In this document: positions 578-64,000 of the stretch, piece by piece
Layout: every line of letters begins with the position of its first letter
Numbering within the stretch: position 1 is the stretch's first letter
IMG/VR virus record: IMGVR_UViG_3300000233_000009
Span: 4,087-68,086 of that record
Length of the DNA: 64,000 bases
Source: a virus
Direction: 5' to 3' (one strand)
Position numbers and translations under genes: made by a program
Notes under the pieces: model-generated
What the model was told of the DNA's origin: nothing
What the model saw: the letters and a program-made list of their open reading frames with translations, nothing else
Database searches by the model: none

Positions 578-2743
578 TTATCCTATTCTATACATTGTAT
601 CATAGTTATACAAAGACACTAATGTCTTCATGCTCTTAGATAGATCAAATGAGTCATATTGCAGTTGTACTGCTCTATAAATACTCATGTCTGGTTGGTC
701 TCTTCTAACTAAAGCAGGCTCTAAATTTGCTAATAGAGAGACCTCTGCTGTGCTCAACAGACTTGAAGATCCTGCCATCGCCGTTTCATATTCTTGCTTC
801 CTAGCAGTTATCAACCCATTAAATAGTGCAGCTTCTGCAGCAAGAGCTATAAGTTGGCTATCTAGGTCCTCCATGAATGCTTCTGAGTAATTACTAACAG
901 CAGTTGTAATCAGTTCAGCTGTTATTAGTGGTAGTGTTTGTGTTACCGTGTTTACATCACCTGCGTACAGCAAGGCAGCAGTAGCTATAACAGCAACCAC
1001 AGCTCTTAGTAACGGGTTTTCTATCTGTACTAACAGCAATTTTAACGCATACCCAACCCCTGCTGTGACTAACACTCCTCCTGCCCAGGCAAGCCATGCA
1101 GTAGCACCAGCCCCACCTTCAGGCAGAGTAAGTATGAATAGCACAATAGATATGACTATTATTACCACTTGTATGAAGTCCATAAATGCTTCTGTTTGGT
1201 AGTACTTTAAATGTTGTACATCAACTGCATATGTAACAAACCTTAGTATCTCTGGGAATAATTTTCCCTGCTCTATCGGAGAGAATTTACTTAGGAAGTA
1301 CTGACTTATAGGCATAACGACCAACACCCCTGGGGCTAGTATTGTAAATGCTACATCAGATAACCCCGCTTTCTTAATGATAGTAGCAGCACTAACATTC
1401 CATATTCTGTACTCTACATATTCATCTACTGTCTCTTGCCTTCTAGCCCATCCGTAGTACTTAGATTTTATGTCAGGAACCCATGTACTATTTTCATCAT
1501 AAGATCCGTCATCTACCGTCTCCTCACCTACACCTCCCTCATAAGTACCGACGACTACACCAGTTCTATACCCTACTACCCTATCTTGTCTTTCCCATGA
1601 TACACTGGTATTGTAATCTCCCTCTGTGACCATAATTTGGTGTGTGCCGTTACTTACCACAGCTGGGTCCAAAAATAAATAGTCCAATGTGCTGTACACT
1701 ATCTTAGCTTGTAGTGGGTTATTGCTCCCTACCTCACATCCAAAATAAATATATGCAGCAGTGACACTTTCTATACTAGAATTACTCTCTAGCCCTCCTA
1801 CCATAGTATCTACATCAATCCCAATAAACCCCAGGATCTCTTTAGTCTGCTTATACTTATCAGAATTCTTATCCGCAGTTACACTTATCCCGTTCTTACG
1901 CAGCTCAACAATAGGCAACATATCTAAGTCGGTTAAGTAGTTCCTGGCTGCATCTAACTCTGGTTTACCACTACCGATGAAATAAACCCACTTATACTCA
2001 TCTGTAGTACCGTCATTTACGTACGTGACTACATATGCTATATTGGGCGCGTAATTGCCTATAGCTATCGTAATAGTCGTTGCTGGAACACTCTGTAAAT
2101 GTGCTACTACTTTATACTGCCCCACTCCGTAATCATAATGGAAATTCTCCATTACCCAGTTAGCCTCCTCGTACCAGAACACCATGCTAGTTTGGCCCAT
2201 TCCGTATAGTTGTGTCATCTTGTAGTTGACCCAGTCCTCTTCTTTTGGCACCTGCACCTTGATGTCTACTACCGTAACCGCGGATCCCACATCCGCTTGA
2301 ACGTACCAGTCTACTATATCCTTATTCACACTTACCGTATTAATGGTAGTTTCTGGCAACCCATCATCGTACTTGTTCTTACCGTAGCTACTGTACTTTT
2401 GAACAGCACCCTTCATGCCTTGGCTCTTGGTGGCTAGTAAATCTATAATACCTAACTGTGTTGCTTGATGTTCTAATGCCACTTGTGTCATCAGGGTCTT
2501 GTAAAAGTCATTATTGCCACTCATAAGCTTTTGATCTTGTGCCTGTATTGTAATAACATCTTCATCATCTATACCTATTAGGGCAAAAAGTATGCCTAAC
2601 TGGTCAGACATAAATTTTTCACAGTCCTTACATAGAGTAGCAAGTATTAGGGCTCCCAAAGGAAACATGCTCATAAGTGAAACTACAACAACCGCAACAA
2701 CGACTTCCCATGCGTCCTCTAAAAATTCTAAAACCGCTCCCAT
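578..2743 (-). CDS. N4 gp53-like virion structural/ejection protein with N- and C-terminal hydrophobic helices
   Basis: 721 aa; position between gp52-like and gp54-like; KYYQTEAF followed by several TM-like segments; starts Met-Gly. Confidence 0.7.
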   Translation of the reverse strand: MGAVLEFLEDAWEVVVAVVVVSLMSMFPLGALILATLCKDCEKFMSDQLGILFALIGIDDEDVITIQAQDQKLMSGNNDFYKTLMTQVALEHQATQLGIIDLLATKSQGMKGAVQKYSSYGKNKYDDGLPETTINTVSVNKDIVDWYVQADVGSAVTVVDIKVQVPKEEDWVNYKMTQLYGMGQTSMVFWYEEANWVMENFHYDYGVGQYKVVAHLQSVPATTITIAIGNYAPNIAYVVTYVNDGTTDEYKWVYFIGSGKPELDAARNYLTDLDMLPIVELRKNGISVTADKNSDKYKQTKEILGFIGIDVDTMVGGLESNSSIESVTAAYIYFGCEVGSNNPLQAKIVYSTLDYLFLDPAVVSNGTHQIMVTEGDYNTSVSWERQDRVVGYRTGVVVGTYEGGVGEETVDDGSYDENSTWVPDIKSKYYGWARRQETVDEYVEYRIWNVSAATIIKKAGLSDVAFTILAPGVLVVMPISQYFLSKFSPIEQGKLFPEILRFVTYAVDVQHLKYYQTEAFMDFIQVVIIVISIVLFILTLPEGGAGATAWLAWAGGVLVTAGVGYALKLLLVQIENPLLRAVVAVIATAALLYAGDVNTVTQTLPLITAELITTAVSNYSEAFMEDLDSQLIALAAEAALFNGLITARKQEYETAMAGSSSLLSTAEVSLLANLEPALVRRDQPDMSIYRAVQLQYDSFDLSKSMKTLVSLYNYDTMYRIG

Positions 2744-3228
2744 TACAACACCTTTATACCTAGATACTTGAACAATTCAGGACCTTTAGCAGTAACACTT
2801 TTCCTCACTATGACCAATGGCTGTCCATTCTCATGACATGCCTTAATACTAGCACTAGTTGCCATAGATACAAAGTACTTCAATCCGCCTTTGTGAGGAG
2901 ATACCTTAATCTTATGCCAATCATACACATCGAACATGCTCTTCATTAGTATCAGCATACCTACTCTATCATACCTACACCACAGAGCTGCTCCTTGGTA
3001 TTCCCCATCTCTAAATAGGTTATACATTACCCCTATTTTCTTACCGTCCTTAGTAATCCTAAAGGCTAATCCTTGTCTTACAGACTCTTCCATCCTTTCT
3101 ATGTATTCTGATTCATTCACACTTACGTTATCTTGCAGTGCAAACCCCATATCAGCAACTATATGCTTCATTTCAGCCTTCACCAATGAGTATGTCGCCT
3201 CCTTACTTTTGTACGATGCGACTACCAT
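2743..3228 (-). CDS. hypothetical protein, putative GNAT-like acyltransferase
   Basis: 161 aa alpha/beta pattern (LAFRITKDGKKIGVMY); directly downstream of ACP and ketosynthase; stop overlaps gp53-like ATG (TAATG). Function inferred. Confidence 0.45.
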   Translation of the reverse strand: MVVASYKSKEATYSLVKAEMKHIVADMGFALQDNVSVNESEYIERMEESVRQGLAFRITKDGKKIGVMYNLFRDGEYQGAALWCRYDRVGMLILMKSMFDVYDWHKIKVSPHKGGLKYFVSMATSASIKACHENGQPLVIVRKSVTAKGPELFKYLGIKVL

Positions 3229-3235
3229 ATTAGCC

Positions 3236-4066
3236 TCATTTCAGCACCACACAACTTCCATACCAGTTTCCCATACCACTAGACACACATAGTACTCTTC
3301 CTTGTATATCTGGCTCATCTAATACCATGCATACTTCTATCAACCCACTCACACCTTGAGTATGCCCTATCTTTTCTTTATATCTTAGTTGAGGCTTGTA
3401 ATAGAATGATTCAGCAGTTTCATTTGTCTCAGTACCAGTACCATGAGGATTTACATAGTCACAGTCATTCATTACTCTCTTGTATCCACTCTTCGTTACA
3501 CCGAATGGATTTCTATTGTATTCGTACTCCCACTTACACTCAGATATGCCTTCACCTTTTCCTAGATGGATCACAGCACATCCTTCTCCTACTTTAAGAT
3601 CTATATTCATCTCATCAAAGATTCTCAATGTGTTGTAGCTTGTCTTCTCCTCGGCTATGATCACTACTTCATCGAATTCATCATCTAGTAGTCTCTCTGC
3701 TTCATATAGACTATACATAGAGCTAGCACAAGTATTCCCGTTAATGCTGGCATATCGAATATTATCTCTTCCATTAATCATCCCTATCCATCTGTGCATA
3801 CTATACGCTGCAGTCTCTCTGATACATGCTCCACTGTCTAACACATTCTCTCTTAGCTTTCCACTATCCACTACGTTTCTTGCTTCACTAGCTCCTAGCA
3901 ATACCCCACCAGCATACAGAATAGCTACTTTGCCATTCAGTTTTATTGAACTAATATACTCTTGCGTAATACTTATATATTGAGAAGTCATATATTCTTT
4001 CCTAGATAGACTTTCTACAATACCTTCTTCATTAGGCAGTATGTACTTATAACTTAGCACTTTCAT
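3236..4066 (-). CDS. beta-ketoacyl-ACP synthase (FabB/FabF-like ketosynthase, compact)
   Basis: Cys-His-His triad motifs NTCASS, NPHGTGT, KIGHTQGVSG; 276 aa. Confidence 0.9.
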   Translation of the reverse strand: MKVLSYKYILPNEEGIVESLSRKEYMTSQYISITQEYISSIKLNGKVAILYAGGVLLGASEARNVVDSGKLRENVLDSGACIRETAAYSMHRWIGMINGRDNIRYASINGNTCASSMYSLYEAERLLDDEFDEVVIIAEEKTSYNTLRIFDEMNIDLKVGEGCAVIHLGKGEGISECKWEYEYNRNPFGVTKSGYKRVMNDCDYVNPHGTGTETNETAESFYYKPQLRYKEKIGHTQGVSGLIEVCMVLDEPDIQGRVLCVSSGMGNWYGSCVVLK

Positions 4067-4283
4067 CTTGGATCCTATCTAGCATATTTTGTATAGTCAG
4101 AATTTCCCACTCAACAGTGTCTAACCACTCACTCTTGAAGCATTCATATTCTCTATCCAGTTCAAAGAACACCATAGTAGTACCAAACGAATCTACCCCA
4201 GCATCACTCCAAAGACTACTTTCAGTCACAGGGTTGCCATGCTCCTCTTTTAATACCGCGTTGATCTTTTCTAACGGGTTCAT
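4047..4283 (-). CDS. acyl carrier protein
   Basis: 78 aa acidic protein with phosphopantetheine site DAGVDSFG; overlaps ketosynthase start. Confidence 0.85.
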   Translation of the reverse strand: MNPLEKINAVLKEEHGNPVTESSLWSDAGVDSFGTTMVFFELDREYECFKSEWLDTVEWEILTIQNMLDRIQDESAKL

Positions 4284-50351: not shown

Positions 50352-51434
50352 ATGACAACCCTATATAAAGTAAACAAAAACAAAGCAATTCAATCTTGGT
50401 CTATACAAACAATTGAGGATACATTTATTATAACTTTTGGCCTGATCGGCGTAATTATGCAAACAGTCTCCACAAAATGTTATAGCAAAAATATTGGGAA
50501 GTCTAATGAGACAACACCTGAGCAGCAAGCTATACTGGAAATGGAAGCATTAATAACTAAAAAGATTAAATCTGGCTATTCATATGACATTTCGGCTCCT
50601 AACACAGTGATGTTGCCAATGAAGGTAAAATGTTATCAAGGCCAATTACACAATATCAAGTTTCCATGTTACAGTTCAGCGAAATTAAACGGGGTTAACG
50701 GAACTTATCGTAGAGTGAATGGCAAACTTAGCCTTTACTCTCGAGGGGGTGAGCTATATCCAGCAATACCTCATCTTGAGTCATTAGTGCATGAAACAAT
50801 GGACCTGTTTAATTCTAACGAACTTAATGGCGAACTATATATACATGGATTTGCATTGCAGGATATTACCTCTGCTGTAATTAAGCCTAATAGCAACTCT
50901 AATCTACTTGGTTTTTGTATATTTGACATTGCGGATATGTCTAGCACATTTAGCACACGAGCCACGATAATGCATTCTTATCAGAACTTTGATACCACTA
51001 TACACTCTACAGTATCAGTTGTATACAATGTTACTTGCAACTCTATTGCGGATATTGAAGCGCATTACACTGAATGTGCTGATTTTGGTTACGAGGGAAC
51101 AGTCATAAAAAACACCAAAGCCTTGTACCAACACAACGTCAGATCGTCTGATATGTTCAAGTACAAAAAAGCACAAGATGCTGAATGGGAGATTATTGGA
51201 TATGAGCTAGATAAACGTAACCATCCAGTATTTATCTTCATCACCAAAGAACTCAAGACATTCAAAGCCAAACCAAAAGGTACACATGAATTTCTAGCAA
51301 ACATTGACCCCGACACCTACATAGGCCAGTTTGCTACTTGTGAGTATGAAGTTCTTAGCAAAGACCTTATACCATTGAAGCCGATTTTTATTGGCTTACG
51401 TACCTGTGATTCTAACGGAAGCCAGTTAATCTAA
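50352..51434 (+). CDS. ATP-dependent DNA ligase
   Basis: AKLNGV, LNGELY, IFDI, YEGTVIK, FKYK. Confidence 0.9.
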   Translation: MTTLYKVNKNKAIQSWSIQTIEDTFIITFGLIGVIMQTVSTKCYSKNIGKSNETTPEQQAILEMEALITKKIKSGYSYDISAPNTVMLPMKVKCYQGQLHNIKFPCYSSAKLNGVNGTYRRVNGKLSLYSRGGELYPAIPHLESLVHETMDLFNSNELNGELYIHGFALQDITSAVIKPNSNSNLLGFCIFDIADMSSTFSTRATIMHSYQNFDTTIHSTVSVVYNVTCNSIADIEAHYTECADFGYEGTVIKNTKALYQHNVRSSDMFKYKKAQDAEWEIIGYELDKRNHPVFIFITKELKTFKAKPKGTHEFLANIDPDTYIGQFATCEYEVLSKDLIPLKPIFIGLRTCDSNGSQLI

Positions 51435-51886: not shown

Positions 51887-52156
51887 ATGACACGAAAAGA
51901 ACTAGTTGCATGTATCGCAACCAAAAAAAGCATTACTAAAGTAGAAGCTACTCGTCAATTAGACACAGTATTGGACGCTATTGAAGCAGCCCTCACAACG
52001 GACTCTGTTGTAGATCTATTTGGGTTTGGTAAATTTACCAAAAAACACAAACCTGCCAAATCAGGTATTGCATTGGGTAAACCATATAGCACACCTACAA
52101 AGAATGTTGTAAAATTCAAAGCTGCTAAAGCATTAAATGATACTTTAAACTCTTAG
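51887..52156 (+). CDS. hup: HU family DNA-binding protein
   Basis: MTRKELV...VDLFGFGKF...VVKFKAAKAL. Confidence 0.92.
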   Translation: MTRKELVACIATKKSITKVEATRQLDTVLDAIEAALTTDSVVDLFGFGKFTKKHKPAKSGIALGKPYSTPTKNVVKFKAAKALNDTLNS

Positions 52157-52273: not shown

Positions 52274-54478
52274 ATGATCCAAGTTGTTAAACATGATGGT
52301 TCGCTTGAACCTTTGGACATATCCAAAGCAACAGCAAGTCTATCATGGGCTATTGGTGATCTGACGGGCGTTTCTTTGTCAGACATCGAAGTACAGTCCA
52401 ATTTGCATTTCTTCGACGGCATCCACACCAGCTACATTACTGACATTTTTATAAAGACATGTGATGATCTAGCCAATCTTCGCAACCCTAATTACGACAT
52501 AGTAGCACGCAATCTTAAGCTACAACGTTTATACAAGCAAGTGTTTGGCTCAATTCACCCTCCTAGTTTAGTAGACTTCTTAACTAAACGTGTTAAAGAT
52601 GGCCACTATTCCTCGAATTTAATTAATAATGCTCAAATCGATTACCACCAGCTTGAAGCAGCGATCGATCACAAACGTGACTTTACATTCACTAGTTCTG
52701 GCCTAGATGCGTTAATCAACGGCTACGGAGTATGTAAATTTGAGACCCCTCAATTTATGTTCATGGCTATCGCAATAGACATCTTTCGTGATTACCATAT
52801 AGACCCAACACGCTATATTGTTGACTTTTATCATGCTCTGTCAACATTTAAGATAACTCTACCAACCCCAGAAATGAAGTCACTACGTACTAGTTCTACT
52901 GACTACGCTAGTTGTATAATCTTACGTATGGGGGATTCTATTGATTCTTGGAAAGCTGCATCTAATGCACTAATTGATCATACAGTAGCTTCTGCAGGAG
53001 TTGGTGTAGATATTGCTGATGTAGCTTCTATTGGAGATAAAGTTAAGTCGGGTAAAATCACCCATTCAGGTAAATTGCCAATACTTAAATCTATTGATAC
53101 GGACATAGGGAAAGCAAGTCAGGAATCCAGAAGAGGCTCTGCCACAGCGTGTCTAAACTTTTTTGATCCAGAGATAGAGACAGTGTTTGCACTTAAGTCT
53201 CCTCGTATGCCTGTACAAGACCGAATTAATGACTTGTCATACCTTATTAAAGTTAATCAACTTGTATATGATAGAGCTAAACAAGGTAAGGTGCTATCAT
53301 TACTTTCGGTACGTAAATGTCCCCGTTTACTTGAATTATTTTACTCAAGTGATGTAGATGCATTTACTGAGTACTATGAACAATGTGAAGAACAAGAGTT
53401 ATATACCAGTCAAATAGATGCTAGGACATTTTGGGAAAGACTTGTTGCTGTAGAATCAGCAGAGACTTCGGCTTACTATATACTAAACATAGATGAGATT
53501 AATGCTAATTCTCATATCACTAGGGCTATTACTATGGCCAACATATGTATTGAGTATATGACTGGAATTAAGCCATTGTCAACCACTGATACATCATCAC
53601 CTGACATTGGTGTTTGTGTGCTTGGTAATGTAAACCAAGGCATTGTTTCTATTGATCAACTTCCTAGTGTTACCAACTTGTTAGTCCGAGCGCAGTCGCA
53701 TATCATGACTAGGCAAGTCCATCCAACTACACAAGCTAACGCCTATGTCAAACACTACAGGGACATTGGTCTTGGGTTATCCAACCATGCATTTTGGCTA
53801 GCTAATCAAAGCTTCCGCTATGGTCAACAAGAAGCATTGGATAAGCATAATGAATGGATGGAACACTTCTCATATAACTGTCACGTTGCCTCAATACAAC
53901 TGGCTAAGGAATTAGGTGCTGTACCAGGATTTGTTTATCACGACAAACTATTACCAGTAGCACGTTACAATCGTAATGTTGATGAACTTGTTTCACCAAC
54001 TTGGCATTGTGACTGGACTGGTTTAGCTTACGAGATCGAACACTCTGGTATGTACAATGTTGGATTGATGATGGTACCACCTGCAGAGACATCTGCTGGA
54101 CCTTCAAATCAAACGACTGGGTTAGAACCAATACGTAATTTACTAACTGTCAAAGACAAGTCTGGAGTTAATTATAAGCAATTTGCACCTGACTGTATTC
54201 GTCTTGCTGATAAATATGACTTTGCATATGATAGAGATATTAATAGCGATTTCTTGAAACATGTTGCTGTAACCCAAAAGTGGATTGATAAAGGGATCTC
54301 AGCAAATACATTCTATAATCCAGAACTGGCCGAAGGCAAAGTAAATGCAACATCAATTATTGCAGACTTATTCTTTGCCAAGGATTACGGAGTAAAAGGA
54401 CGCTATTACATGAATGTCAAAATGCCAGACGAACAAGAATTACAATCTAATTGTAATGGGGAGGGATGCTCGGTATGA
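52274..54478 (+). CDS. nrdA: ribonucleotide reductase class Ia alpha subunit with ATP cone
   Basis: VVKHDG, LPTP, YASC, ANICIE, GVCVLG, YY, C-terminal CNGEGC. Confidence 0.95.
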   Translation: MIQVVKHDGSLEPLDISKATASLSWAIGDLTGVSLSDIEVQSNLHFFDGIHTSYITDIFIKTCDDLANLRNPNYDIVARNLKLQRLYKQVFGSIHPPSLVDFLTKRVKDGHYSSNLINNAQIDYHQLEAAIDHKRDFTFTSSGLDALINGYGVCKFETPQFMFMAIAIDIFRDYHIDPTRYIVDFYHALSTFKITLPTPEMKSLRTSSTDYASCIILRMGDSIDSWKAASNALIDHTVASAGVGVDIADVASIGDKVKSGKITHSGKLPILKSIDTDIGKASQESRRGSATACLNFFDPEIETVFALKSPRMPVQDRINDLSYLIKVNQLVYDRAKQGKVLSLLSVRKCPRLLELFYSSDVDAFTEYYEQCEEQELYTSQIDARTFWERLVAVESAETSAYYILNIDEINANSHITRAITMANICIEYMTGIKPLSTTDTSSPDIGVCVLGNVNQGIVSIDQLPSVTNLLVRAQSHIMTRQVHPTTQANAYVKHYRDIGLGLSNHAFWLANQSFRYGQQEALDKHNEWMEHFSYNCHVASIQLAKELGAVPGFVYHDKLLPVARYNRNVDELVSPTWHCDWTGLAYEIEHSGMYNVGLMMVPPAETSAGPSNQTTGLEPIRNLLTVKDKSGVNYKQFAPDCIRLADKYDFAYDRDINSDFLKHVAVTQKWIDKGISANTFYNPELAEGKVNATSIIADLFFAKDYGVKGRYYMNVKMPDEQELQSNCNGEGCSV

Positions 54479-54765
54479 TGAAACAACATATACTCCATAA
54501 AATGATTTTAGATGAAATAATGGAATTTAAAAAAATAAATTTAAACCCAACTACGCTTGTAATAAGAGCAGATGTATTACATCATATGCTTGGTTGGGAA
54601 GACATCAGAAGATACTATATACCAAAGCATGAAACAAAAAACAAAAAAGCTATGTATCTGAATTTGGAAGTAGTTGAAAGCGTGCCGTACGATGACTTAG
54701 AATACTTTGTATGTTGTGCAGCTTTTGCAGGAAAATCAAGAAAGGAAATACTTACAAATGTCTAA
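54475..54765 (+). CDS. hypothetical protein inserted between nrdA and nrdB
   Basis: AT-rich ORF overlapping both neighbours. Confidence 0.55.
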   Translation: MMKQHILHKMILDEIMEFKKINLNPTTLVIRADVLHHMLGWEDIRRYYIPKHETKNKKAMYLNLEVVESVPYDDLEYFVCCAAFAGKSRKEILTNV

Positions 54766-55846
54766 TCATCTATTTAACCAAAACCAAATCAACTTTGCAA
54801 ATGAGCCGCTGTTCTTAGGAACAGGACGCAATATCTCTCGTCTTGATTTATCTATAGAACCACATATAGCAAAGTCTACTGCAGATGCATTAGGCAAGCT
54901 ATGGTTTGCAGGTGATTTTAGTCCTAGCAAGGATGCTAAATCATACATTGAATGTAGCGCACAACTTAACACTCTATTCATGAAGAACTTAAAGTTTCAA
55001 ACTTTATTGGATTCATTAGCAGCACGTTCAGTTGCAGAAGTGTTCGTACCAATCACCACTAATCCCCAATTAGAATCGTGGTGGTACCAACATGCATTCT
55101 TTGAAAACAACATACATAGCCAGTCTTATGCTGACATCCTAAAGGGTTTACCAGTAGATGCCAAAGCTATCTTTGACGACATAATGGTAAACCCAGAAAT
55201 TCTAGCTAGAGCAACCTCCATTGTAGCCTGCTTCGAAGATACAGTACAGTGGAACGCTAAGATGATCTTGGACATTGACTATTCCGTAGAAGCGCATAAG
55301 TACTCTATTGTAATGTCACTGTTTGCACTTAACATTCTTGAAGCAGTACTATTTAAGTCTTCCTTCCTAACAAGTTTTGCCTTTAAGGAAAATGGATTTT
55401 ACTCCATTACTGCAGATATAATTAGCAAGATTGCCATGGACGAAGCTGGGCATTACGCAATGACTACTAACGTCATTAATAGACTACGCAAAGATCCAGC
55501 GTGGGCTTACATTTTTGTAGAAAATTCAAACGCAATCGATCAGCTTTACCGAGATGCACTCATTGCAGACTATGATTGGATTGATTACTGCTACACTGAT
55601 GATACTCGTTTATTGGGAGTAAACAATGCAGTTGTTAAGCAGTATATCACAGCAAATATACACTCAGTTATGACTTCAGTAGGACAACCTCCAATTGTAG
55701 ATAGAGTAGACAATCCTTGCTCCTGGGCAAAAAAGTACACTCGTCCATCTAATATTCAAACAGCCCAAAAAGAAAAAACTGGGGGTCAATACTTGTTAGG
55801 TATTGTAAGACAAGATACTACCTCAAAGTTCTGGAATACTTTATGA
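54758..55846 (+). CDS. nrdB: ribonucleotide reductase class Ia beta subunit
   Basis: QTLLDS, ENNIHSQSY, ILEAVLF, DEAGH iron and radical ligands. Confidence 0.95.
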   Translation: MSNHLFNQNQINFANEPLFLGTGRNISRLDLSIEPHIAKSTADALGKLWFAGDFSPSKDAKSYIECSAQLNTLFMKNLKFQTLLDSLAARSVAEVFVPITTNPQLESWWYQHAFFENNIHSQSYADILKGLPVDAKAIFDDIMVNPEILARATSIVACFEDTVQWNAKMILDIDYSVEAHKYSIVMSLFALNILEAVLFKSSFLTSFAFKENGFYSITADIISKIAMDEAGHYAMTTNVINRLRKDPAWAYIFVENSNAIDQLYRDALIADYDWIDYCYTDDTRLLGVNNAVVKQYITANIHSVMTSVGQPPIVDRVDNPCSWAKKYTRPSNIQTAQKEKTGGQYLLGIVRQDTTSKFWNTL

Positions 55847-56111
55847 AGAGAGGAGCATGTATCACTAAAGAGAGTTTAACTACTACATCAAATGGAGGTA
55901 AAACTGACTTCTATGATATCGTAGGATGCACTGATGTGGATGATTTAGCAGAGCATTGGGATCTTAGAGGAGATGAGCTCAATTGTCTTAAAGCTATAGC
56001 AGGTATTGCACTTGGTTCAAGGCATCAGGTACATCTCCTATTAGAGATGCGAATAAACTATTACACTACGCTCAACGTATTGTAAATCGACTTAATAAGG
56101 ACTCACAATGA
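55843..56111 (+). pseudogene. DUF3310-like small protein with a 1-nt frameshift
   Basis: GGKTDFY...NCLKA...RH then GTSPIRDANKLLHYAQR...SQ* in the -1 frame, ending in ATGA overlap with next gene. Confidence 0.6.
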
Positions 56112-56500
56112 AATGGATAAATAGACTTAAGATGTGGCGTAAAGCTCGTGGTATAACAGTACCGTCAGGCAAGATTGTAACGATGTTAGAGGAAGAAATA
56201 GCGGAATACTCACATGCTAGAACTATTCAAGATGAACATGAAATGATTGATGCTTTAGCAGATATCATAGTATTAGCTTCTAATGAACTAGCTTTAATGG
56301 GTTATGATACGGATTTAGTATTGAAACAGACTGTAAAACATATCTCTTCTAGGGTCCAAGACCCTGCTCAAGCAGCTTTATGGAAATCTGGGCAGGTATC
56401 GGAAAAATGGAAAAAGTATGCTGACCAGAATCCTGACAGCATCTATCTCCCTAATTACAGTTCATGCAAACTCAAAAGGAGTATCTTAGAGCACTCTTAG
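56108..56500 (+). CDS. MazG-like nucleoside triphosphate pyrophosphohydrolase
   Basis: MLEEEIAEY...MIDALADIIV. Confidence 0.75.
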   Translation: MKWINRLKMWRKARGITVPSGKIVTMLEEEIAEYSHARTIQDEHEMIDALADIIVLASNELALMGYDTDLVLKQTVKHISSRVQDPAQAALWKSGQVSEKWKKYADQNPDSIYLPNYSSCKLKRSILEHS

Positions 56501-59500
56501 GAGTGTTCACTAGATTTACCTTGTGTTTTACTGTACTTGCCTTTAACCACTTCAGATACTGCTGTAAACTTTCTTCTAGCAATCTTCTTAACTTTGTTAA
56601 AAGTGTCTTCTATGTACTCCTCCGTTTTAGACCCTTTAGTAACTGCGTATAAAAGTCTTTTACTATTTTGCTGTGTAGTATGCATTACCCCATCAGCATC
56701 TAATATTTCTACTGTGTAGTATTCTATATTAACATCTTTATAATGCCCAACTAAAGTTACTGTAGTAGTTTCTCCTTCTTCTAAGAGCATTTCAGGACCT
56801 TTACCAATAACTACCGTAGACTTAGGGTGATATATAATATGCTTGTTCTTTAAAGGCCCTTCCACTATCCTGAATTGAGAGTATAACTTTATATCATCTC
56901 CATATTTTAATGGTTTACCAAAAGGGTGTGCATTATCATCACTACCTAGAATCAGTTCAACTGAAGTAGGAGTAATAGCATTGGCAATATTGTCTAATGG
57001 GTTATGGACCAAACCTCCATAGTTCTTTGTCCATATACTCTGCTCACTAACATCAGGTACATCAACTGTTGCTTCTTGTAATAGCATACTATATACAAAA
57101 CTTACAGGTTTCTTCTCAATCAAGTACTGAAGAGCTCTTTGTGTTCGTTTAAAGTACTTAGTAAACATCAGTAATCCTATCTTATTAAGCCAATCTTCTT
57201 TTGCAGAAGAGATCTTATTGTAGTTTACAAAAGCATTTATTACAGTCTTCAGTGCATTATTATGAAGAACCCCTTGCTCTCTTAAGAATTGGTACTCTGT
57301 TACCCTAGCAACAACATCACTATATTGCGTAAACAATGTCATCATCTTAAAGAATTGAGTTTTCTCACTGAGGTATATCCAATGCAATCCTTCCTTAATA
57401 AATCCTGGCACACCTTCTCCTACGCTTTCCACCTTTTTAGAAATCTTATTTGTAGTCTTGAAATCTTCTTGCCCTATATCTTCAGTCTGCACTGCTTGAT
57501 ATAGCCCTGATTCCATCAACTCATGCAGAGGGTGTTCTTCCATCTGAGCTTGTAGATTACGAGCTTTTCTCTTAGCATTTGGTTCTCCATTTTTTCCTTT
57601 TTGGACTTGTAGCTCATGATTATTACGTAATTGAATATACTCATGTACAGCAACAAAATTTGAGGCTGTTCTCTTAATAACTTTTATAGGGTTATTACCT
57701 GATTGCACACTATAAAATGCATTAGATACAATATTACTTAATAGGACTCCTGGTGTTCTTATGATAATATCTACCTTTGAGATCTTAATCAACTCTTTCC
57801 AGTATCCTTCCACTACTCTGGTTAAGTCCTGTATTTCTTTAGGAGCAACCCCATTAAAGTATATCCCAAGGGCCCCTGCATTTAATATAGTAGCTTCTTT
57901 AAATCCAAAGTACGCATGTAGCATATCTCTTCTTACTGCTATGCCTGTATATCCTTCATGATCTACTGCTTCCTTAAAGCTCTTTGGTAATAGTTTATAA
58001 ATACTTGCAATTTCTTCTATGTGGCTATCTTCTGTTATCTTGACATACTCTCTTCTGTTATGCCCGTACACTTCACCAGCCACATAATTTGCATCCATGT
58101 CTGCTTTGATTACTTTTAGAACTTTATTGTTCTGCTCTTCTGTTTTGCTTTTATCATACATATTTGAATGCATTCTGGCAAGTACATCAACTCCATCAAT
58201 ATCTTGCTCTAGTAAGTCTCTTTTAGCCTTCTTAGACATCATATATCTAAAAGTGTGCAGTTGGTATGCACCAGTAATAACAGGAGATAATCCTATTGCT
58301 ATATCCTTTACTCTATCATAGGTACCGGCTAACATCTCTTTTGCAATTTCTCTTTGTTGTCTTTTAAGTATAGCAATATCTGTGGCTTCCTTAATTCCTC
58401 TGTATGACTCACTACCCTTGAATCTGATATCGCCTAGAGTTGTTCCTCGTCGTCCTAGGTCAGTAATTCTAGTAACTCCAGGACTGTATCCTAGAGCCAC
58501 AAATGCTTTACTCTTATACACCCCCATAGGTTCTACACTAGTGTCAAAAGAGCTTTTATTTACTTCACTAACTAGCTCATACCCTTCATTTTCCATTTCT
58601 GCTCTTATAGATAAAGGCATGACTTGCACACTAACAGTATTGTCAGATAGTTGTGCTGCATATCCTTTTATCATCAGTGCTTCATTACCTTTAAATAACG
58701 TTTTCTTACTTTCTGTCTTAAATACGTGATGATAGTTTAAGAATTTATTCATGCCTTCAGGATCACTGTCCATTAATCTAGCAACTTCATTATTAATCTC
58801 TTTAGAGTTATAGCTTATTCCGTATAGAGTAGCAAGTATATCAACATGCTTGATTGTGATAGAGCTTGGCTTTGTTTGGGCATGACCACTATGGACTAAT
58901 CGTACGATTCCTTCAGCATTGTAGTTCTGTATAATACCTGCTTCATGCGTAGCCATATAAACCCCAAGACCTTTTGCTTGTGTTGTGTACCACTTACCAA
59001 ATGCTTTATCTGCATGTAATATTGCCTCAATTCTTGCTATTTCTAATTCTCTCTTTCCTGTATGCTTTAACAACACACTAATCTGTTCGCTACTATAATG
59101 CTTTGTAAGGCTTTCTAAATCTATGTCTAATACACCTAAGGATAATACTTCTCTTGCCTTCCTACTAAGTTTTTCTTTAAACATTGTGTGTATATACCCT
59201 CTAGCAACCTTCTCTATAAGTACTTTTTCTTCCTCAATTTTACCATTAGCATACCCTAACCTTTCAATCGCATCATCAAGGGTATCAGAAGACCTCATAT
59301 CCTTTAGTATGTTTGTAATCATCCCTTCAGGGTCAATTCCTAAAGCTGTCATTAGCTGTTCAAGCTCTGGTCTCAATTTTGGATCTGCTATAAGTTTGTA
59401 TGAGTATTTGGTAAGAAAGTACGCTTGTTGTAATACACTGGCATTAATAGGTATTTGGGGAATCCCTTTATTATCTATGTACTTCTCTACCTTCTTAACA

Positions 59501-60522
59501 AGATTCTCACCTTTCTTATTAGCACTATCAACCATCCTAAATATGCTAGTGAATAACCCGTCATTTTTCATCACTCGATTAATTGCTTTATTGTTGGTTT
59601 CACTTAAAACTAGAGTTAGCCCTAATAGTGCTTCGTACACATTATCATGATGTTGCCCTGATTTAACATTATTCATCACTAAACTCATCAAACTTTCCCA
59701 TAGGTTTTTTAATAGCCCTAATATAGAAGAAGCTTGTTCTGTCTCATTAAAACTATCTGACACATCTACAGTTTTCAGAAATGTTACTAACTGTTCATTA
59801 GTTAGCCCATGTGCTATAAACTCATGTAGTCCTTTGCCTTCCTTATTATTAAATATGTAAGTGTATGTAGCTTTTGCGATCTCTTCTTCTCTCTTTGGAT
59901 CAATACTATCCTCAGGTAAGAAGTGTTCCCATGTCACATGCTTTTCAGCTAAATGGAACAGATTCCATAACTGCTTTACTGTTGTGTGATTTACCATGCT
60001 CTTCAAGGATAGTGCATATGCTGTAAATGCATGTATTAATTCATGTGCATGCACTTCCATAGCAGATTTTGCATTCCCTGCTAATGCTTTAGTCTTAGTG
60101 TTGAGGTTTAAATACATTGACATTTTCTTGGTATCAAATACACCAGAGCTTTTCTCTGCTTCTGTGTTCAGAAATAGATTAACCTCATTAAGAAACTCTG
60201 TATTAAGAGACCCTAATACTTCTGCTATGTGTGCTTTATGTTCTTCACTAGGAGCATCAGGAAGTGTACCAAGATTTTGGCTAAGTTTTTGTATCTTCTT
60301 CATATCCTTATGGATATCTTTACCTAGACTTTCATATCTAATTGTCTGTTCGTTACCATTTTCACTGCCATACCAAGTTTCTTCAGACTCTTTCACTGTG
60401 TGGGTATTGTCTTGTGGCACAGCGTTCATTTGCTCTACCTTATAAGACATCTCTACCAGTAATGCTTTATCGCTCTCTGGCATACTACTATGGTTTAGCA
60501 ACTCATTTATACTACAATTCAT
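56497..60522 (-). CDS. separately encoded C-terminal part of N4-type virion RNA polymerase, with zincin-like HExxH
   Basis: 1341 aa; HAHELIHA, LHEFIAHGLTN, VRRDML, QYSDVVAR, AFVNY; directly follows the polymerase gene. Confidence 0.8.
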   Translation of the reverse strand: MNCSINELLNHSSMPESDKALLVEMSYKVEQMNAVPQDNTHTVKESEETWYGSENGNEQTIRYESLGKDIHKDMKKIQKLSQNLGTLPDAPSEEHKAHIAEVLGSLNTEFLNEVNLFLNTEAEKSSGVFDTKKMSMYLNLNTKTKALAGNAKSAMEVHAHELIHAFTAYALSLKSMVNHTTVKQLWNLFHLAEKHVTWEHFLPEDSIDPKREEEIAKATYTYIFNNKEGKGLHEFIAHGLTNEQLVTFLKTVDVSDSFNETEQASSILGLLKNLWESLMSLVMNNVKSGQHHDNVYEALLGLTLVLSETNNKAINRVMKNDGLFTSIFRMVDSANKKGENLVKKVEKYIDNKGIPQIPINASVLQQAYFLTKYSYKLIADPKLRPELEQLMTALGIDPEGMITNILKDMRSSDTLDDAIERLGYANGKIEEEKVLIEKVARGYIHTMFKEKLSRKAREVLSLGVLDIDLESLTKHYSSEQISVLLKHTGKRELEIARIEAILHADKAFGKWYTTQAKGLGVYMATHEAGIIQNYNAEGIVRLVHSGHAQTKPSSITIKHVDILATLYGISYNSKEINNEVARLMDSDPEGMNKFLNYHHVFKTESKKTLFKGNEALMIKGYAAQLSDNTVSVQVMPLSIRAEMENEGYELVSEVNKSSFDTSVEPMGVYKSKAFVALGYSPGVTRITDLGRRGTTLGDIRFKGSESYRGIKEATDIAILKRQQREIAKEMLAGTYDRVKDIAIGLSPVITGAYQLHTFRYMMSKKAKRDLLEQDIDGVDVLARMHSNMYDKSKTEEQNNKVLKVIKADMDANYVAGEVYGHNRREYVKITEDSHIEEIASIYKLLPKSFKEAVDHEGYTGIAVRRDMLHAYFGFKEATILNAGALGIYFNGVAPKEIQDLTRVVEGYWKELIKISKVDIIIRTPGVLLSNIVSNAFYSVQSGNNPIKVIKRTASNFVAVHEYIQLRNNHELQVQKGKNGEPNAKRKARNLQAQMEEHPLHELMESGLYQAVQTEDIGQEDFKTTNKISKKVESVGEGVPGFIKEGLHWIYLSEKTQFFKMMTLFTQYSDVVARVTEYQFLREQGVLHNNALKTVINAFVNYNKISSAKEDWLNKIGLLMFTKYFKRTQRALQYLIEKKPVSFVYSMLLQEATVDVPDVSEQSIWTKNYGGLVHNPLDNIANAITPTSVELILGSDDNAHPFGKPLKYGDDIKLYSQFRIVEGPLKNKHIIYHPKSTVVIGKGPEMLLEEGETTTVTLVGHYKDVNIEYYTVEILDADGVMHTTQQNSKRLLYAVTKGSKTEEYIEDTFNKVKKIARRKFTAVSEVVKGKYSKTQGKSSEHS

Positions 60523-63500
60523 TTAACACCCTTCTATTATCTTTAGAGCGACTTCAGAGAGCTCTTGTTCAATTATTACCCCTACTCTATTACCAACATC
60601 GTATTCTTCTGCTACAGCCTCTGCTTGTGCTTTTTCAAGCTCTTGTTTAGCCTTTGCCACATCCTTAACTACCTTCACTAACTTATACTCATACTCAGAT
60701 TTTACTTCTCCTAGAAATACCTTTAAGTCTTTCCCTTTTGCTTTATACGCACTACCAACTGGTCCAGCCATATGTACTACTGTCATATCCTCCTTAAAGA
60801 ATTGATTACGATTCGCACTTACAACTCTAGCGTACTCATTAGTCATCTGTTTAAGATCTTGTAATGTTACTTTATACTCCTCTGCATCATCAACAGGAAT
60901 GCTACCTATTCCAGGCAGTAGCGTAACATTAACAACAGTAACTTCAAGTTCTGGAGATGTCACAACTCTATTAAGTGCTTCAGCTACTGCTTCTATAACT
61001 GAGTATGTTGATTGTGCATTATACCACTGTGCATTGTAGTTATGTGTAGTATCTTTTGCATTATCAACTCCTACTACTTCAGCATCATGTACCCCTAACA
61101 ATCCTGCTTTACTCTTGTTTATTGTTTCTGCCATAACTACACCATCTATGTAGTGGATAGGTACTACAGCTCCTGCTTTAGTAGCTACTTCAAAGTCTTT
61201 TACTATTGCTTGAGCTGTTCTTTGACTAGCTAGAGTTCCTTCTAAGTAGGATACTTGTGTTGCTCCATATGTACCTTCATCATGTACTCTAGCCATACTA
61301 TAGATTGGGATACCTTGATTAATATCCTCACTAAGAGGACCTCGTATTAAAGGGAATACACTTTGCAACTCCTTGAGTATCTGCACCTTCTTTTCTGCAG
61401 TAATACTATTGACTTTGTCTGTCTTTTTAATCTCCTCTACTCTCTTATCATACTCACTCCTGTACGCCGCAAACATTCCTGTAAATGCATTATTCATCAC
61501 TTGATTGGCAGTTATCAGCTCCCCATACTTCTCCTTATAGTGCGCTTCTAACTGTACTCCATAAGTGTCTGTAATCATACCTGACAGTAACTTTAGTAGA
61601 TTACCTTTAGGGTATTTAATATCTTCTGCATACTTCGTCCTAAGCAGTGCAGGAATGTCTTTTAATCCTGTTAATTTAACTATCTCTTGCAACAGCAGTT
61701 TAGAGTTTTTACCGTTAGTCTCAGCTATCTCATCAAGGATGTCATTTGCTATCTTCTCACTAAATGAGGTGATAAGGGATGATAGTCCAGCAGCGTAGTT
61801 GAACTCCATGAATGGTTGCTTGAATAGGTCTCTCAACTCTTTGGTTACTTCCCCTTTCTCTGTGACCTTTGGTATCTTTTTTTGCAATTCTCTCCACAGA
61901 CTCTTTTCAACAACTCTTATATTCTTATCCATATCTGTGGTATTTATTTCCAGTGCCGATCCTTGGTATACGTCTATAATTTTATCCGCAGGATCCTTAG
62001 GATCTAGTGTATCACTAATATTAGTAACATCATCACCCTTTTCTCCTATGAACACTCCTACCTTCTCCTGATACCCTGAGTCAAACCCTAACTGCCCTAT
62101 CTTAATACCAAATCCAGATGTCTTGGCATCGAACTCTAATAATAGCTGTATTTCAACTACATCTCCTGCTTTTGCCTTCTCCATCTTCTGTAGGGTATCT
62201 AGCATATTGAGATAGTGACCAAGATGTTCTACCTCAATCCCTTTTATTTCTACATCCTTCTCTATCACCTTCACTAACTCCGCATATCCTAAAGCTTCTA
62301 CTTTCTTACCCTTAGCCACACTGCTTGCTATGCTCTTCTTGTCTACTCCATATCCTACTGCTTGTGCTAGACCGATGTAGTACTCATCAGACTCTTTACC
62401 CTTCTCCACTTTAGAGTTATTACCTTCGCCAACATATATCCATCTGTGTAATTGTTTGCCTGACTGCGTATTGATAGTATTACTATCCTGCATAAACCTA
62501 CCATTCCTAGAGAAGAACCAGTCGAAGTACATACCGTCGTTTAGCTTATTCTCTATTGTAGCTTCTACCTCTCGTAGTATCGCATCATTCTTAGCTTCTA
62601 CTGACTCTCTCTTCTTAATAGACATTTTACTGAATCCATCTGCTTCACCTAGGTCGAACCTATACCCCATTAACTCTAGGGCTTTCTCTTTATTATCTTT
62701 AACCCACTGCACTGCTGTAGCTACTGGCATGTGCTTCTCTCCTGCCAATTTATTGAGTGCGTCTACTGCTTTATCAGGAACTACTGTGATTGCATTCCTT
62801 CTAGCTTTAGTCTTACCATACTCCTTCTTTTTAGGCTTTTCTGCCGTTGGGCCTTTAACTACAGTACCACTAGTACTTAACTCTTCTTTCATCTTTGTAT
62901 ATACTTCTTTAGCAGCTTCTTTTACTTTTGTTCTATGAACTTTTGGTATAGTGTAGAAGGATACTGTGGAAAGCACATTCTTTGTGTGTGTAGTTCTATC
63001 TGCTCCTACCTTACCTGCTTCTTTTACATTCCTTTTTACCATCTTCAGCTCTTCCATCATCATCAAAGTGTGCTGTCCTATTGCTGACTTTAGCTTATCT
63101 GCTACTTCTATTGGAATGTCATTCTTAATCTTTAATCCCATATAGTTTAATACAGCTCCACCTAAGTCATTTAATATAGTAACTCCTGGTAATCCTAGAG
63201 CTATTGTTCTATTGATTTCAGCAGTACTAGCAGACTTCTTACCTAAAATCTTTAAAGCAGTCTCTCTGCTCATATGTGACAACTCTCCACCATTTGCTAC
63301 GATATACTCATTTGCTGCTAGTGCCATTGCTGTAAGCATTTTACCGTTTATAGAACCATCTTTCATAAATAGCATTCCTCTAGCTAAGTCGTCCTTTGCT
63401 TTCAATTTAGCCACAGACTCTAAATTCTTTGCTTTTGGGAGCATCTCTTGGGTAAATGTTTCAGGAATTATTTTAATAAACTTATTAAACCATTTTTTCT

Positions 63501-64000
63501 GCATCTTTGCTGTCATGCTCTCTGCATTTTGTAGTATATCAGTGTTCATTGTATCTTCAGCATAGCTCTCTAATATGGAGCTAATATCTACTACCTGTTT
63601 AACATCTAACCCTGCTCCTATTAGTCCAACACCTTTTGAGATACTATTATTAAGCATCTCAGTATTGTTAAGTATCTTGTTCTTTTCTTGTAATTTTGCA
63701 TGCTCTTCTGTTGCGTTTTTAGCAACTTCCTTTTCAACCTTTGGTTTGGCATTCTTACTTAGTGTACTAGATTTAACCCATTCCCCAGACTTCTCTACAT
63801 AGACATACCCGCTCTCTTTAAGGTGAGCCTTAATAACATGTATTAGTGGTTTAGACACTCCCTTATAAGTGTGTATCTTAAACTTAGCACCTGCTGCTAT
63901 TGCCCTATCTATAGACTTCTTCATAGGAGTCATTACATTAGGAACTGATATCCTAGCATTCTTTTTTACTGTACCAGTATCTTTTACTGTACCAGTATCT
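60523..64000 (-). CDS. virion RNA polymerase catalytic part (5' end outside window)
   Basis: SRNGRF, motif A EFDAKTSG, motif B RDLFKQPFMEFNY, motif C VHDA; frame open from 63933 to window edge. Confidence 0.88.
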   Translation of the reverse strand, partial: DTGTVKDTGTVKKNARISVPNVMTPMKKSIDRAIAAGAKFKIHTYKGVSKPLIHVIKAHLKESGYVYVEKSGEWVKSSTLSKNAKPKVEKEVAKNATEEHAKLQEKNKILNNTEMLNNSISKGVGLIGAGLDVKQVVDISSILESYAEDTMNTDILQNAESMTAKMQKKWFNKFIKIIPETFTQEMLPKAKNLESVAKLKAKDDLARGMLFMKDGSINGKMLTAMALAANEYIVANGGELSHMSRETALKILGKKSASTAEINRTIALGLPGVTILNDLGGAVLNYMGLKIKNDIPIEVADKLKSAIGQHTLMMMEELKMVKRNVKEAGKVGADRTTHTKNVLSTVSFYTIPKVHRTKVKEAAKEVYTKMKEELSTSGTVVKGPTAEKPKKKEYGKTKARRNAITVVPDKAVDALNKLAGEKHMPVATAVQWVKDNKEKALELMGYRFDLGEADGFSKMSIKKRESVEAKNDAILREVEATIENKLNDGMYFDWFFSRNGRFMQDSNTINTQSGKQLHRWIYVGEGNNSKVEKGKESDEYYIGLAQAVGYGVDKKSIASSVAKGKKVEALGYAELVKVIEKDVEIKGIEVEHLGHYLNMLDTLQKMEKAKAGDVVEIQLLLEFDAKTSGFGIKIGQLGFDSGYQEKVGVFIGEKGDDVTNISDTLDPKDPADKIIDVYQGSALEINTTDMDKNIRVVEKSLWRELQKKIPKVTEKGEVTKELRDLFKQPFMEFNYAAGLSSLITSFSEKIANDILDEIAETNGKNSKLLLQEIVKLTGLKDIPALLRTKYAEDIKYPKGNLLKLLSGMITDTYGVQLEAHYKEKYGELITANQVMNNAFTGMFAAYRSEYDKRVEEIKKTDKVNSITAEKKVQILKELQSVFPLIRGPLSEDINQGIPIYSMARVHDEGTYGATQVSYLEGTLASQRTAQAIVKDFEVATKAGAVVPIHYIDGVVMAETINKSKAGLLGVHDAEVVGVDNAKDTTHNYNAQWYNAQSTYSVIEAVAEALNRVVTSPELEVTVVNVTLLPGIGSIPVDDAEEYKVTLQDLKQMTNEYARVVSANRNQFFKEDMTVVHMAGPVGSAYKAKGKDLKVFLGEVKSEYEYKLVKVVKDVAKAKQELEKAQAEAVAEEYDVGNRVGVIIEQELSEVALKIIEGC
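63964..63999 (-). repeat. 18-bp tandem repeat encoding DTGTVK (2 copies visible)
   Basis: GATACTGGTACAGTAAAA x2 at window edge. Confidence 0.8.

Follow-up and report, generated by a model that had tools for sequence, protein, structure and literature searches.

A split N4-type virion RNA polymerase with single cysteines at the facing ends: a probable disulfide junction between two virion proteins

The virion RNA polymerase (vRNAP) of N4-type phages is a single chain of about 3500 residues, and that of N4 itself is free of cysteine (Cys). Here we describe a vRNAP that departs from both rules, in a 64,000-nucleotide stretch of virus DNA (hereafter the window; bases 4087-68086 of the 68,086-bp record IMGVR_UViG_3300000233_000009). 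In contrast to the single chain, the polymerase is encoded by two open reading frames (ORFs) of 2029 and 1341 aa, with a TAA stop between them, and the pair contains two Cys, both at the termini created by the split, while the rest of both chains is Cys-free. By analogy with a bond seen in the virion of another phage, we consider it probable that these two terminal Cys form a head-to-tail disulfide in virions. The features of the junction are the following:

60523..64000, minus strand: 3' part of vRNAP piece 1 (RNA polymerase (RNAP) domain and tail), matching phrog_2206 at E 2.1e-63
60526..60723, minus strand: C-terminal tail of piece 1, 66 aa, after the last RNAP-domain block (...KGKDL) and ending in the sole Cys, delimited by the junction alignment
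60526..60528, minus strand: TGT, the C-terminal Cys and only Cys of piece 1, read from the sequence
60523..60525, minus strand: TAA stop of piece 1, adjoining the ATG of piece 2, read from the sequence and the same in contigs of 4 runs
56497..60522, minus strand: vRNAP piece 2 (C-terminal domain, CTD), 1341 aa plus stop, matching phrog_2206 at E 4.8e-147
60373..60522, minus strand: N-terminal head of piece 2, 50 aa, ahead of the first block common to fused relatives (YGSENGNEQ...), delimited by the junction alignment
60514..60516, minus strand: TGT, Cys3 and only Cys of piece 2, its column invariant in alignments A3, A4 and A5

Piece 1 ends in GGG TGT TAA and piece 2 starts at the next base, in the same frame, with ATG AAT TGT. 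Within the window the ORF of piece 1 is visible at 60523..63999 (minus strand) with its 5' end open, which gives 1158 residues. The ends of the record carry a direct terminal repeat of 74 bp, so the vRNAP gene runs across them, and when piece 1 is followed over the record ends its frame comprises 2030 codons, or 2029 aa counted from Met. The completeness listed for the whole record is 63, despite this repeat. The sole Cys of piece 1 is its last residue, in the 1158 visible residues as well as in all 2029, and the sole Cys of piece 2 is residue 3. A preliminary description of the window, made from its letters, had placed the only Cys of each protein at the split-facing end; the counts bear this out over the full length of piece 1 too, since no Cys is added beyond position 64000 up to the start Met. 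Taken together, the two pieces hold 2 Cys in 3370 residues, both at the split-facing termini, and the mean Cys content of the window ORFs of at least 150 aa is 0.92%. The same description had pointed to the stop codon as a possible sequencing error. The stretch 60200-60850 shows zero differences across the Logan contigs of 4 runs (2012, 2014, 2019; word depths 20-402), some of which may be the source sample itself. Since the junction is identical in all of these contigs, the TAA between the pieces is not a sequencing error.

Judged from profiles and alignments, the two pieces are an N4-type virion RNA polymerase, with the N-terminal domain (NTD) and RNAP domain in piece 1 and the CTD in piece 2. 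On the PHROG 2206 'virion RNA polymerase' profile (3406 positions), the visible part of piece 1 covers positions 885-2001 and piece 2 covers 2274-3390, and by tblastn 466 phage records annotated as vRNAP were matched. Piece 2 aligns with residues 2220-3449 of N4 gp50, its residues 152-306 lying against gp50 2220-2370, while piece 1, compared by phmmer with N4 gp50 alone, was unmatched at E 1e-3. Pfam returned no family in either piece, the PDB sequence search nothing for either, and the junction region had no blastn match in the phage collection. Like N4 gp50 and the vRNAPs of Schitoviridae in general (e.g., DEV gp71), the window pieces combine homologous RNAP and C-terminal domains with an N4-like gene context and with Cys suppression. 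The last of these traits has been quantified for vRNAP homologs of 191 viruses, whose mean Cys content is reported as 0.00075%, against 0.865% in their proteomes (PMC11445570); residues 10-3500 of N4 gp50, translated here, contain 0 Cys. The 459-codon frame (record 2705-4081, minus strand) that directly precedes the vRNAP gene occupies the place of gp51 in N4 and has no Cys after its first Met, which fits Cys suppression across the ejection operon.

In N4, the RNAP domain and the CTD are reported to be connected by a disordered 23-aa linker (residues 2102-2123) across a weak interface with a PISA free energy of about 0, and the whole vRNAP has been likened to beads on a string (PMC13434306). 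Because of the PHROG 2206 positions, the alignment with N4 gp50 and the location of this linker, we place the split at the RNAP-CTD linker. The match between the split and the border of the N4 catalytic and C-terminal domains, proposed in the preliminary description, is thus upheld. In place of the 23 linker residues of N4, the window has a stop codon and a start codon, a tail of 66 aa, a head of 50 aa and a single Cys to either side. Neither addition belongs to the fused form: in the junction alignment the tail has no counterpart in an unsplit relative (L011), and the head is extra relative to it. Given the weak RNAP:CTD interface and the disordered linker of N4, a split at this place would need a tether; the N4 CTD is needed for encapsidation, as cited in PMC3821669.

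The same arrangement recurs in many relatives. When IMG/VR was scanned with aligned CTD pieces, 113 relatives came up; the best 80 loci were analysed, their plus-strand frames being classified with phmmer. Twenty loci are split at the RNAP|CTD boundary: 14 in two pieces (L005, L007, L008, L010, L012, L013, L016, L017, L019, L020, L022, L023, L027 and L037), five in three pieces (L009, L014, L015, L021 and L039) and one, L035, with a single visible junction. In these 20 loci, Cys is present on both sides at 25 of 25 junctions, 0-5 residues from the C-terminal end of the upstream protein and, downstream, among residues 3-6, and outside L008, L016 and L027 the pieces have no Cys beyond the terminal ones. 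In an alignment of 13 upstream tails (A2, 140 aa) the Cys is the only invariant residue, and in the corresponding alignment of 13 heads (A3, 140 aa) the only invariant residues are the Cys and Met1. The sole-Cys pattern is far beyond chance; it is kept in relatives at 23-37% identity with the Cys as sole invariant residue of the tail. The predicted complex of a 140-aa tail (A2) and a 140-aa head (A3) has an ipSAE of 0.02, which is evidence neither way.

Among isolates, the closest relatives (about 26% identity) are the Alteromonas phages vB_AmaP_AD45-P1 to P4, with the split in the same position. The upstream frame of AD45-P3, of which 2461 codons are visible, has its sole Cys two residues before the C-terminal residue (...HCKQ), and the downstream protein, of 1409 aa, has its own at residue 4 (MTIC). 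The stop of AltAD45 has been confirmed by PCR and resequencing, and its products ran as two separate polypeptides of 270 and 175 kDa on a gel whose conditions the passage at hand leaves unstated (PMC3821669). The authors of that study (Garcia-Heredia et al. 2013) argued from the cysteines that ORF127 is probably not injected, and the passages of the paper at hand mention neither the terminal position of the Cys nor a disulfide (PMC3821669).

A wider sample leads to the same picture. The first 1200 residues of piece 2 were compared by phmmer with 1.84 billion representative proteins, yielding 2223 matches at E 1e-3 or better, and the best 150 of the 2223 were analysed. We call split-type those in which the CTD begins within 450 residues of the N-terminus (113 of the 150). 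Exactly one Cys, at residue 3-7, is found in 105 of these 113 proteins, and 107 have a Cys in the first 7 residues, at position 3 (76 proteins), 4 (21), 5 (8) or 7 (2); over 153,645 residues, four of their 111 Cys are internal. M1 and C3 are invariant in alignments A4 (90 rows) and A5 (57 rows), in part by selection, because the rows were picked from Cys-bearing proteins of ordinary length. As for the other side of the junction, a separate search gave four upstream pieces of split length (2263-2678 aa), and in all four the sole Cys precedes the C-terminal residue by 1-3 positions. P0005, the entry under which the CTD protein of the window itself is found in the database, is called from Met14 and has thereby lost Cys3. 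Gene callers that choose a later Met hide the key Cys in this way, which is a warning for annotators.

The three-piece loci extend the pattern to a third protein. Here the single Cys of piece 1 is C-terminal and that of piece 3 N-terminal, and the middle protein has exactly two, one per end. The middle proteins are 408-1011 aa long, and in three of the four scanned against Pfam and PHROGs (L014, L015, L039) they are Dda/RecD-like superfamily 1 (SF1) helicases, matching AAA_30 (E 3e-22 to 4e-26), AAA_19, UvrD_C_2 and phrog_325 (E 4.5e-64 to 3e-69); in the middle protein of L009 (408 aa) no helicase family was matched by the same scan. These helicases lie between the RNAP and CTD pieces:

L014, 3370-5994, plus strand: SF1 helicase
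L015, 6676-9612, plus strand: SF1 helicase
L039, 4397-7426, plus strand: SF1 helicase

The replication helicases of the window itself contain 13 and 5 Cys. The library protein P0061 combines a helicase and the CTD in one chain, whose sole Cys, residue 4, is on the side toward the RNAP piece. A helicase with two terminal Cys only, inside a vRNAP operon, looks like a further link of the chain, and the arrangement suggests that it is co-ejected with the polymerase.

Relatives with an uninterrupted gene offer the complementary view. Of the IMG/VR loci with the CTD well covered, 33 are unsplit at the RNAP|CTD boundary. Cys is absent altogether from 27 of them; in five it occurs only among the first 34 codons of the stop-to-stop frame, not beyond the start, and one (L036) has a single Cys, at residue 2332. 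The preliminary description had proposed to test whether split homologs keep the terminal C and the MxC motif and unsplit ones lack them, and this came out as predicted in the IMG/VR loci and in the library. Farther away, six unsplit vRNAPs of 3339-4468 aa (P0114, P0125, P0133, P0148, P0157 and P0165) have 5-12 Cys, so that the 'Cys-free' rule is not universal and has exceptions at the level of lineages. A single CxxxxC pair in the late part of the CTD is seen in each of three further proteins (P0085, P0129 and P0149). A tree built from 59 CTD rows (IQ-TREE quick, LG+G4) groups 21 split rows and three unsplit Cys-free rows (L004, L006 and L011) in one fully supported clade, in which the unsplit, Cys-free L011 is nested beside the split pair L007/L010. 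At least five changes of state are needed on this tree, three of them forced by well-supported branches.

A precedent for the proposed bond comes from a different phage family. In the cyanopodophage A4, cryo-EM of the pre-ejectosome in the mature virion revealed a disulfide between Cys1715 of gp27 and Cys5 of gp26 (PNAS 2025, PMC12002296). In the A-4L genome, gp27 (1717 aa) and gp26 (1114 aa; PDB chain 9k3a_A) are encoded by adjacent genes of the ejection-protein module, the bonded residues are the sole Cys of each protein, and that of gp27 lies two residues before the C-terminal residue. The window pieces share with this pair both the adjacency of the genes and the placement of the sole Cys, C-terminal upstream and N-terminal downstream, and differ from it in that no RNA polymerase is involved in A4. 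The bond is presented in the passages at hand as one stabilising bond of a 'mortise-and-tenon' assembly, rather than as a rule that is conserved or as a replacement for a peptide linker (PMC12002296). All five A4-type phages that we examined combine a sole C-terminal Cys upstream with an N-terminal Cys downstream. In Pf-WMP3, Pf-WMP4, TR020 and CHP58 (23-27% identical) the sole upstream Cys precedes the C-terminal residue by one or two positions, and the downstream Cys occupies position 5, or position 8 in CHP58; the downstream protein of TR020 has two extra Cys. The upstream partner is annotated as a 'ParB-like partition nuclease' in Pf-WMP3 (L086:1842-6329) and Pf-WMP4 (L087:2089-6468), and is possibly another cytoplasm-destined cargo on the same coupling device. 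Hardies et al. placed the CTD of N4 gp50 among homologs of T7 internal virion protein D (PMC4819975); given this placement, deep homology between the CTD and A4 gp26 is a lead.

In this context, we put forward that an intermolecular disulfide in the virion would turn the pieces into a near-continuous chain, with overhangs of only 0-5 and 2-7 residues. Such a bond would stand in for the weak, linker-dependent connection between RNAP and CTD, and would hold the RNAP piece to the CTD, so that the two are retained in the capsid and ejected through the narrow tail together. In the three-piece relatives, the same coupling would serve the intercalated cargo protein, an SF1 helicase in some. The short overhangs would keep the joined chain thin enough to thread the tail, the pieces would thread out as one chain, and reduction of the bond in the host cytoplasm would then free them. 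That the bond forms in this phage we infer. A useful comparison is with bacterial toxins of the A-B type, in which two chains held on a single disulfide cross a membrane barrier and cytoplasmic reduction frees the enzymatic chain. In the toxins, however, one chain is nicked by a protease, whereas here the chains are separately encoded, and there is no homology; the analogy is a functional one.

A number of observations weigh against a disulfide of this kind, or against its being a strict rule. Phage assembly takes place in the reducing cytoplasm. A bond of this sort has so far been observed neither in this phage nor in any split vRNAP. The A4 precedent is an analogy, given that no sequence homology is detectable between A4 gp26 or gp27 and the vRNAP pieces: scores from hmmsearch, run with the 8-row profile A1, and from phmmer are negative or near zero, and the hhalign probability is 0.18%. 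Extra Cys do occur, one internal Cys each in L008 and L027 and one or two in P0047 and P0150; that of L016, at frame codon 14, is probably ahead of the start. Among the split-type library CTD proteins, five of the 113 lack Cys and one has it at residue 41, although the five may be start-codon miscalls, like P0005. In L032 a frame-shifted upstream ORF of 186 aa ends in Cys and the CTD piece has none. Splits at the NTD|RNAP boundary carry no Cys at the junction either, as in L022 (3128-9590; 814 + 1345 aa) and L079 (2716-13354; 1536 + 2021 aa), and P0059 looks alike. Thus, not every split is bridged, which tells against a strict rule of one thread. Finally, the split clade is largely of one origin, and a sign test of split against Cys has three independent contrasts on supported branches, with Cys following the split in two and no difference in one (L032; p 0.5). 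With so few contrasts the test of co-variation is underpowered, and the case is instead built on a Cys position conserved across deep divergence, the three-piece pattern and a second phage family, not on counted transitions.

Other breaks in the gene also lack Cys. L037 (1-1626) has an in-frame stop followed directly by ATG inside a conserved catalytic block of the RNAP (...IHFIDGA*MGSI...IHDA...), and this may be a genuine additional split or else a wrong base. The break in L076 falls in sequence 99.7% identical to the unsplit L048, L031 has N bases, and L025 and L034 have overlapping frames; none of these is accompanied by Cys. As far as the compared loci go, recent or doubtful breaks lack Cys, and the old, conserved RNAP|CTD split always has it.

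In an alternative scenario the terminal Cys would be functional but would not join one piece to the other, acting rather in homodimers, in a metal bridge or in contact with another virion component. The one-sided Cys of L032 and the fact that the bond has yet to be observed leave some room for it. Nonetheless, the Cys are found only at split-facing termini (C-terminal in piece 1, at both ends of the middle protein, N-terminal in the last piece) and vanish when the pieces are fused, no other conserved residue lies near them to complete a metal site, and the equivalent pair in A4 is bonded to each other (PMC12002296). We consider this scenario unlikely.

A second possibility is that stop readthrough or a frameshift yields one fused polypeptide, the two genes being only nominal. 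The preliminary description had named readthrough as its own alternative, and the window invites the idea, with its two ORFs in the same frame and the TAA directly before the ATG; four of 23 junctions in relatives are also in frame. In the other 19, however, the two frames differ and the spacer is -4 to +26 nt, so readthrough cannot be general. Moreover, AltAD45 gave separate chains of 270 and 175 kDa (PMC3821669), and a fused product would leave unexplained the Cys conserved on both sides, for which the codons TGT and TGC are both used. This scenario thus seems to us highly improbable. We see equally little prospect for a relic of an intein or split intein, or for other protein-ligation chemistry, even though a Cys before the stop followed by M-N-C superficially resembles intein Cys1 and Asn/Cys+1. 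With 0-5 residues after the upstream Cys and 2-6 before the downstream one, a Hint fold could not be accommodated; the second residue varies (S, A, G, K, N, Q, T and others), Pfam recognises no family in either piece, and AltAD45 shows two chains on gels (PMC3821669). Least plausible of all, and practically to be dismissed, is a sequencing or assembly artefact or a recent pseudogene with Cys by chance. Some relatives' breaks do look like errors (L076, L031, L025, L034), none of them with Cys, but the junction is identical in contigs of 4 runs, the same split and Cys occur in 20 loci and in 107 of 113 library proteins, and the AltAD45 stop is PCR-verified (PMC3821669). Intein relic, readthrough and artefact were accordingly rejected on junction room, reading frames and multi-run identity.

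The remaining features of the locus concern the CTD and its neighbours. In the C1 subdomain of the CTD we note one further element:

60031..60045, minus strand: HExxH motif (H160, E161, H164), from alignments A4 and A5

A HExxH motif has been pointed out for N4 (PMC13434306). In the 57-row A5, E161 and H164 are invariant and H160 and E156 nearly so, and in the 90-row A4 the motif is nearly invariant throughout. From this conservation the zincin-like site is strongly selected, and it may be catalytically active. The context is that of an N4-like phage, with portal (phrog_1216, E 8e-212), major head protein (phrog_1357) and terminase (phrog_38) all on the minus strand, and a DNA polymerase and a ribonucleotide reductase (RNR) also among the N4-like genes. 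On the plus strand, between 50352 and 56500 of the window, are the following genes:

50352-51434, plus strand: ATP-dependent DNA ligase
51887-52156, plus strand: HU-like DNA-binding protein
52274-55846, plus strand: RNR large and small subunits
56108-56500, plus strand: PRA-PH (MazG-like) protein

The PRA-PH gene converges on the 3' end of the vRNAP operon. No match to a thioredoxin-type protein next to the locus was found among the scanned window ORFs, small ORFs being covered non-exhaustively.

Beyond the single bond, we tentatively propose, as a possibility on which we would not yet insist, that the terminal single Cys serves as a modular coupling device of general use, with which trains of ejected phage proteins are assembled. 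A Cys-free cargo of any kind could then be added as a separate gene with a Cys at each end, be it the RNAP piece, the SF1 helicase or perhaps the 'ParB-like partition nuclease' of Pf-WMP3 and Pf-WMP4, and the train would exit as one thread and be uncoupled by cytoplasmic reduction. Its presence in N4-like phages and in Saffermanviridae might reflect convergence or deep homology of C-terminal pieces resembling internal virion protein D. Cys suppression in vRNAPs, the AltAD45 split and the A4 bond were already known. Our literature search found no description of terminal Cys or of a disulfide in a split vRNAP, with the supplements of PMC12002296 (Figs S8-S9) and PMC11445570, which may hold Cys data, outside its coverage. 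What appears to be new, as judged from the literature searched, is the presence of one Cys per broken end across a large group, the middle proteins with Cys at both ends (an SF1 helicase in three) and the absence of these Cys in fused forms.

How a polymerase of 3500 residues leaves the capsid through a channel of about 35 Å has yet to be explained (PMC13434306). One redox-sensitive bond, placed between domains at a defined position, would provide an experimental handle on it, and could address whether the domains exit as one chain, in which order they do so and whether they separate in the cytoplasm. The reading of AltAD45 changes as well, the polymerase piece having been thought non-injected owing to its cysteines. 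By the accepted rule ejected proteins are Cys-free, and here a large natural group breaks this rule in one precise way. Moreover, an SF1 helicase as a putative link of the chain suggests that other enzymes might be links too.

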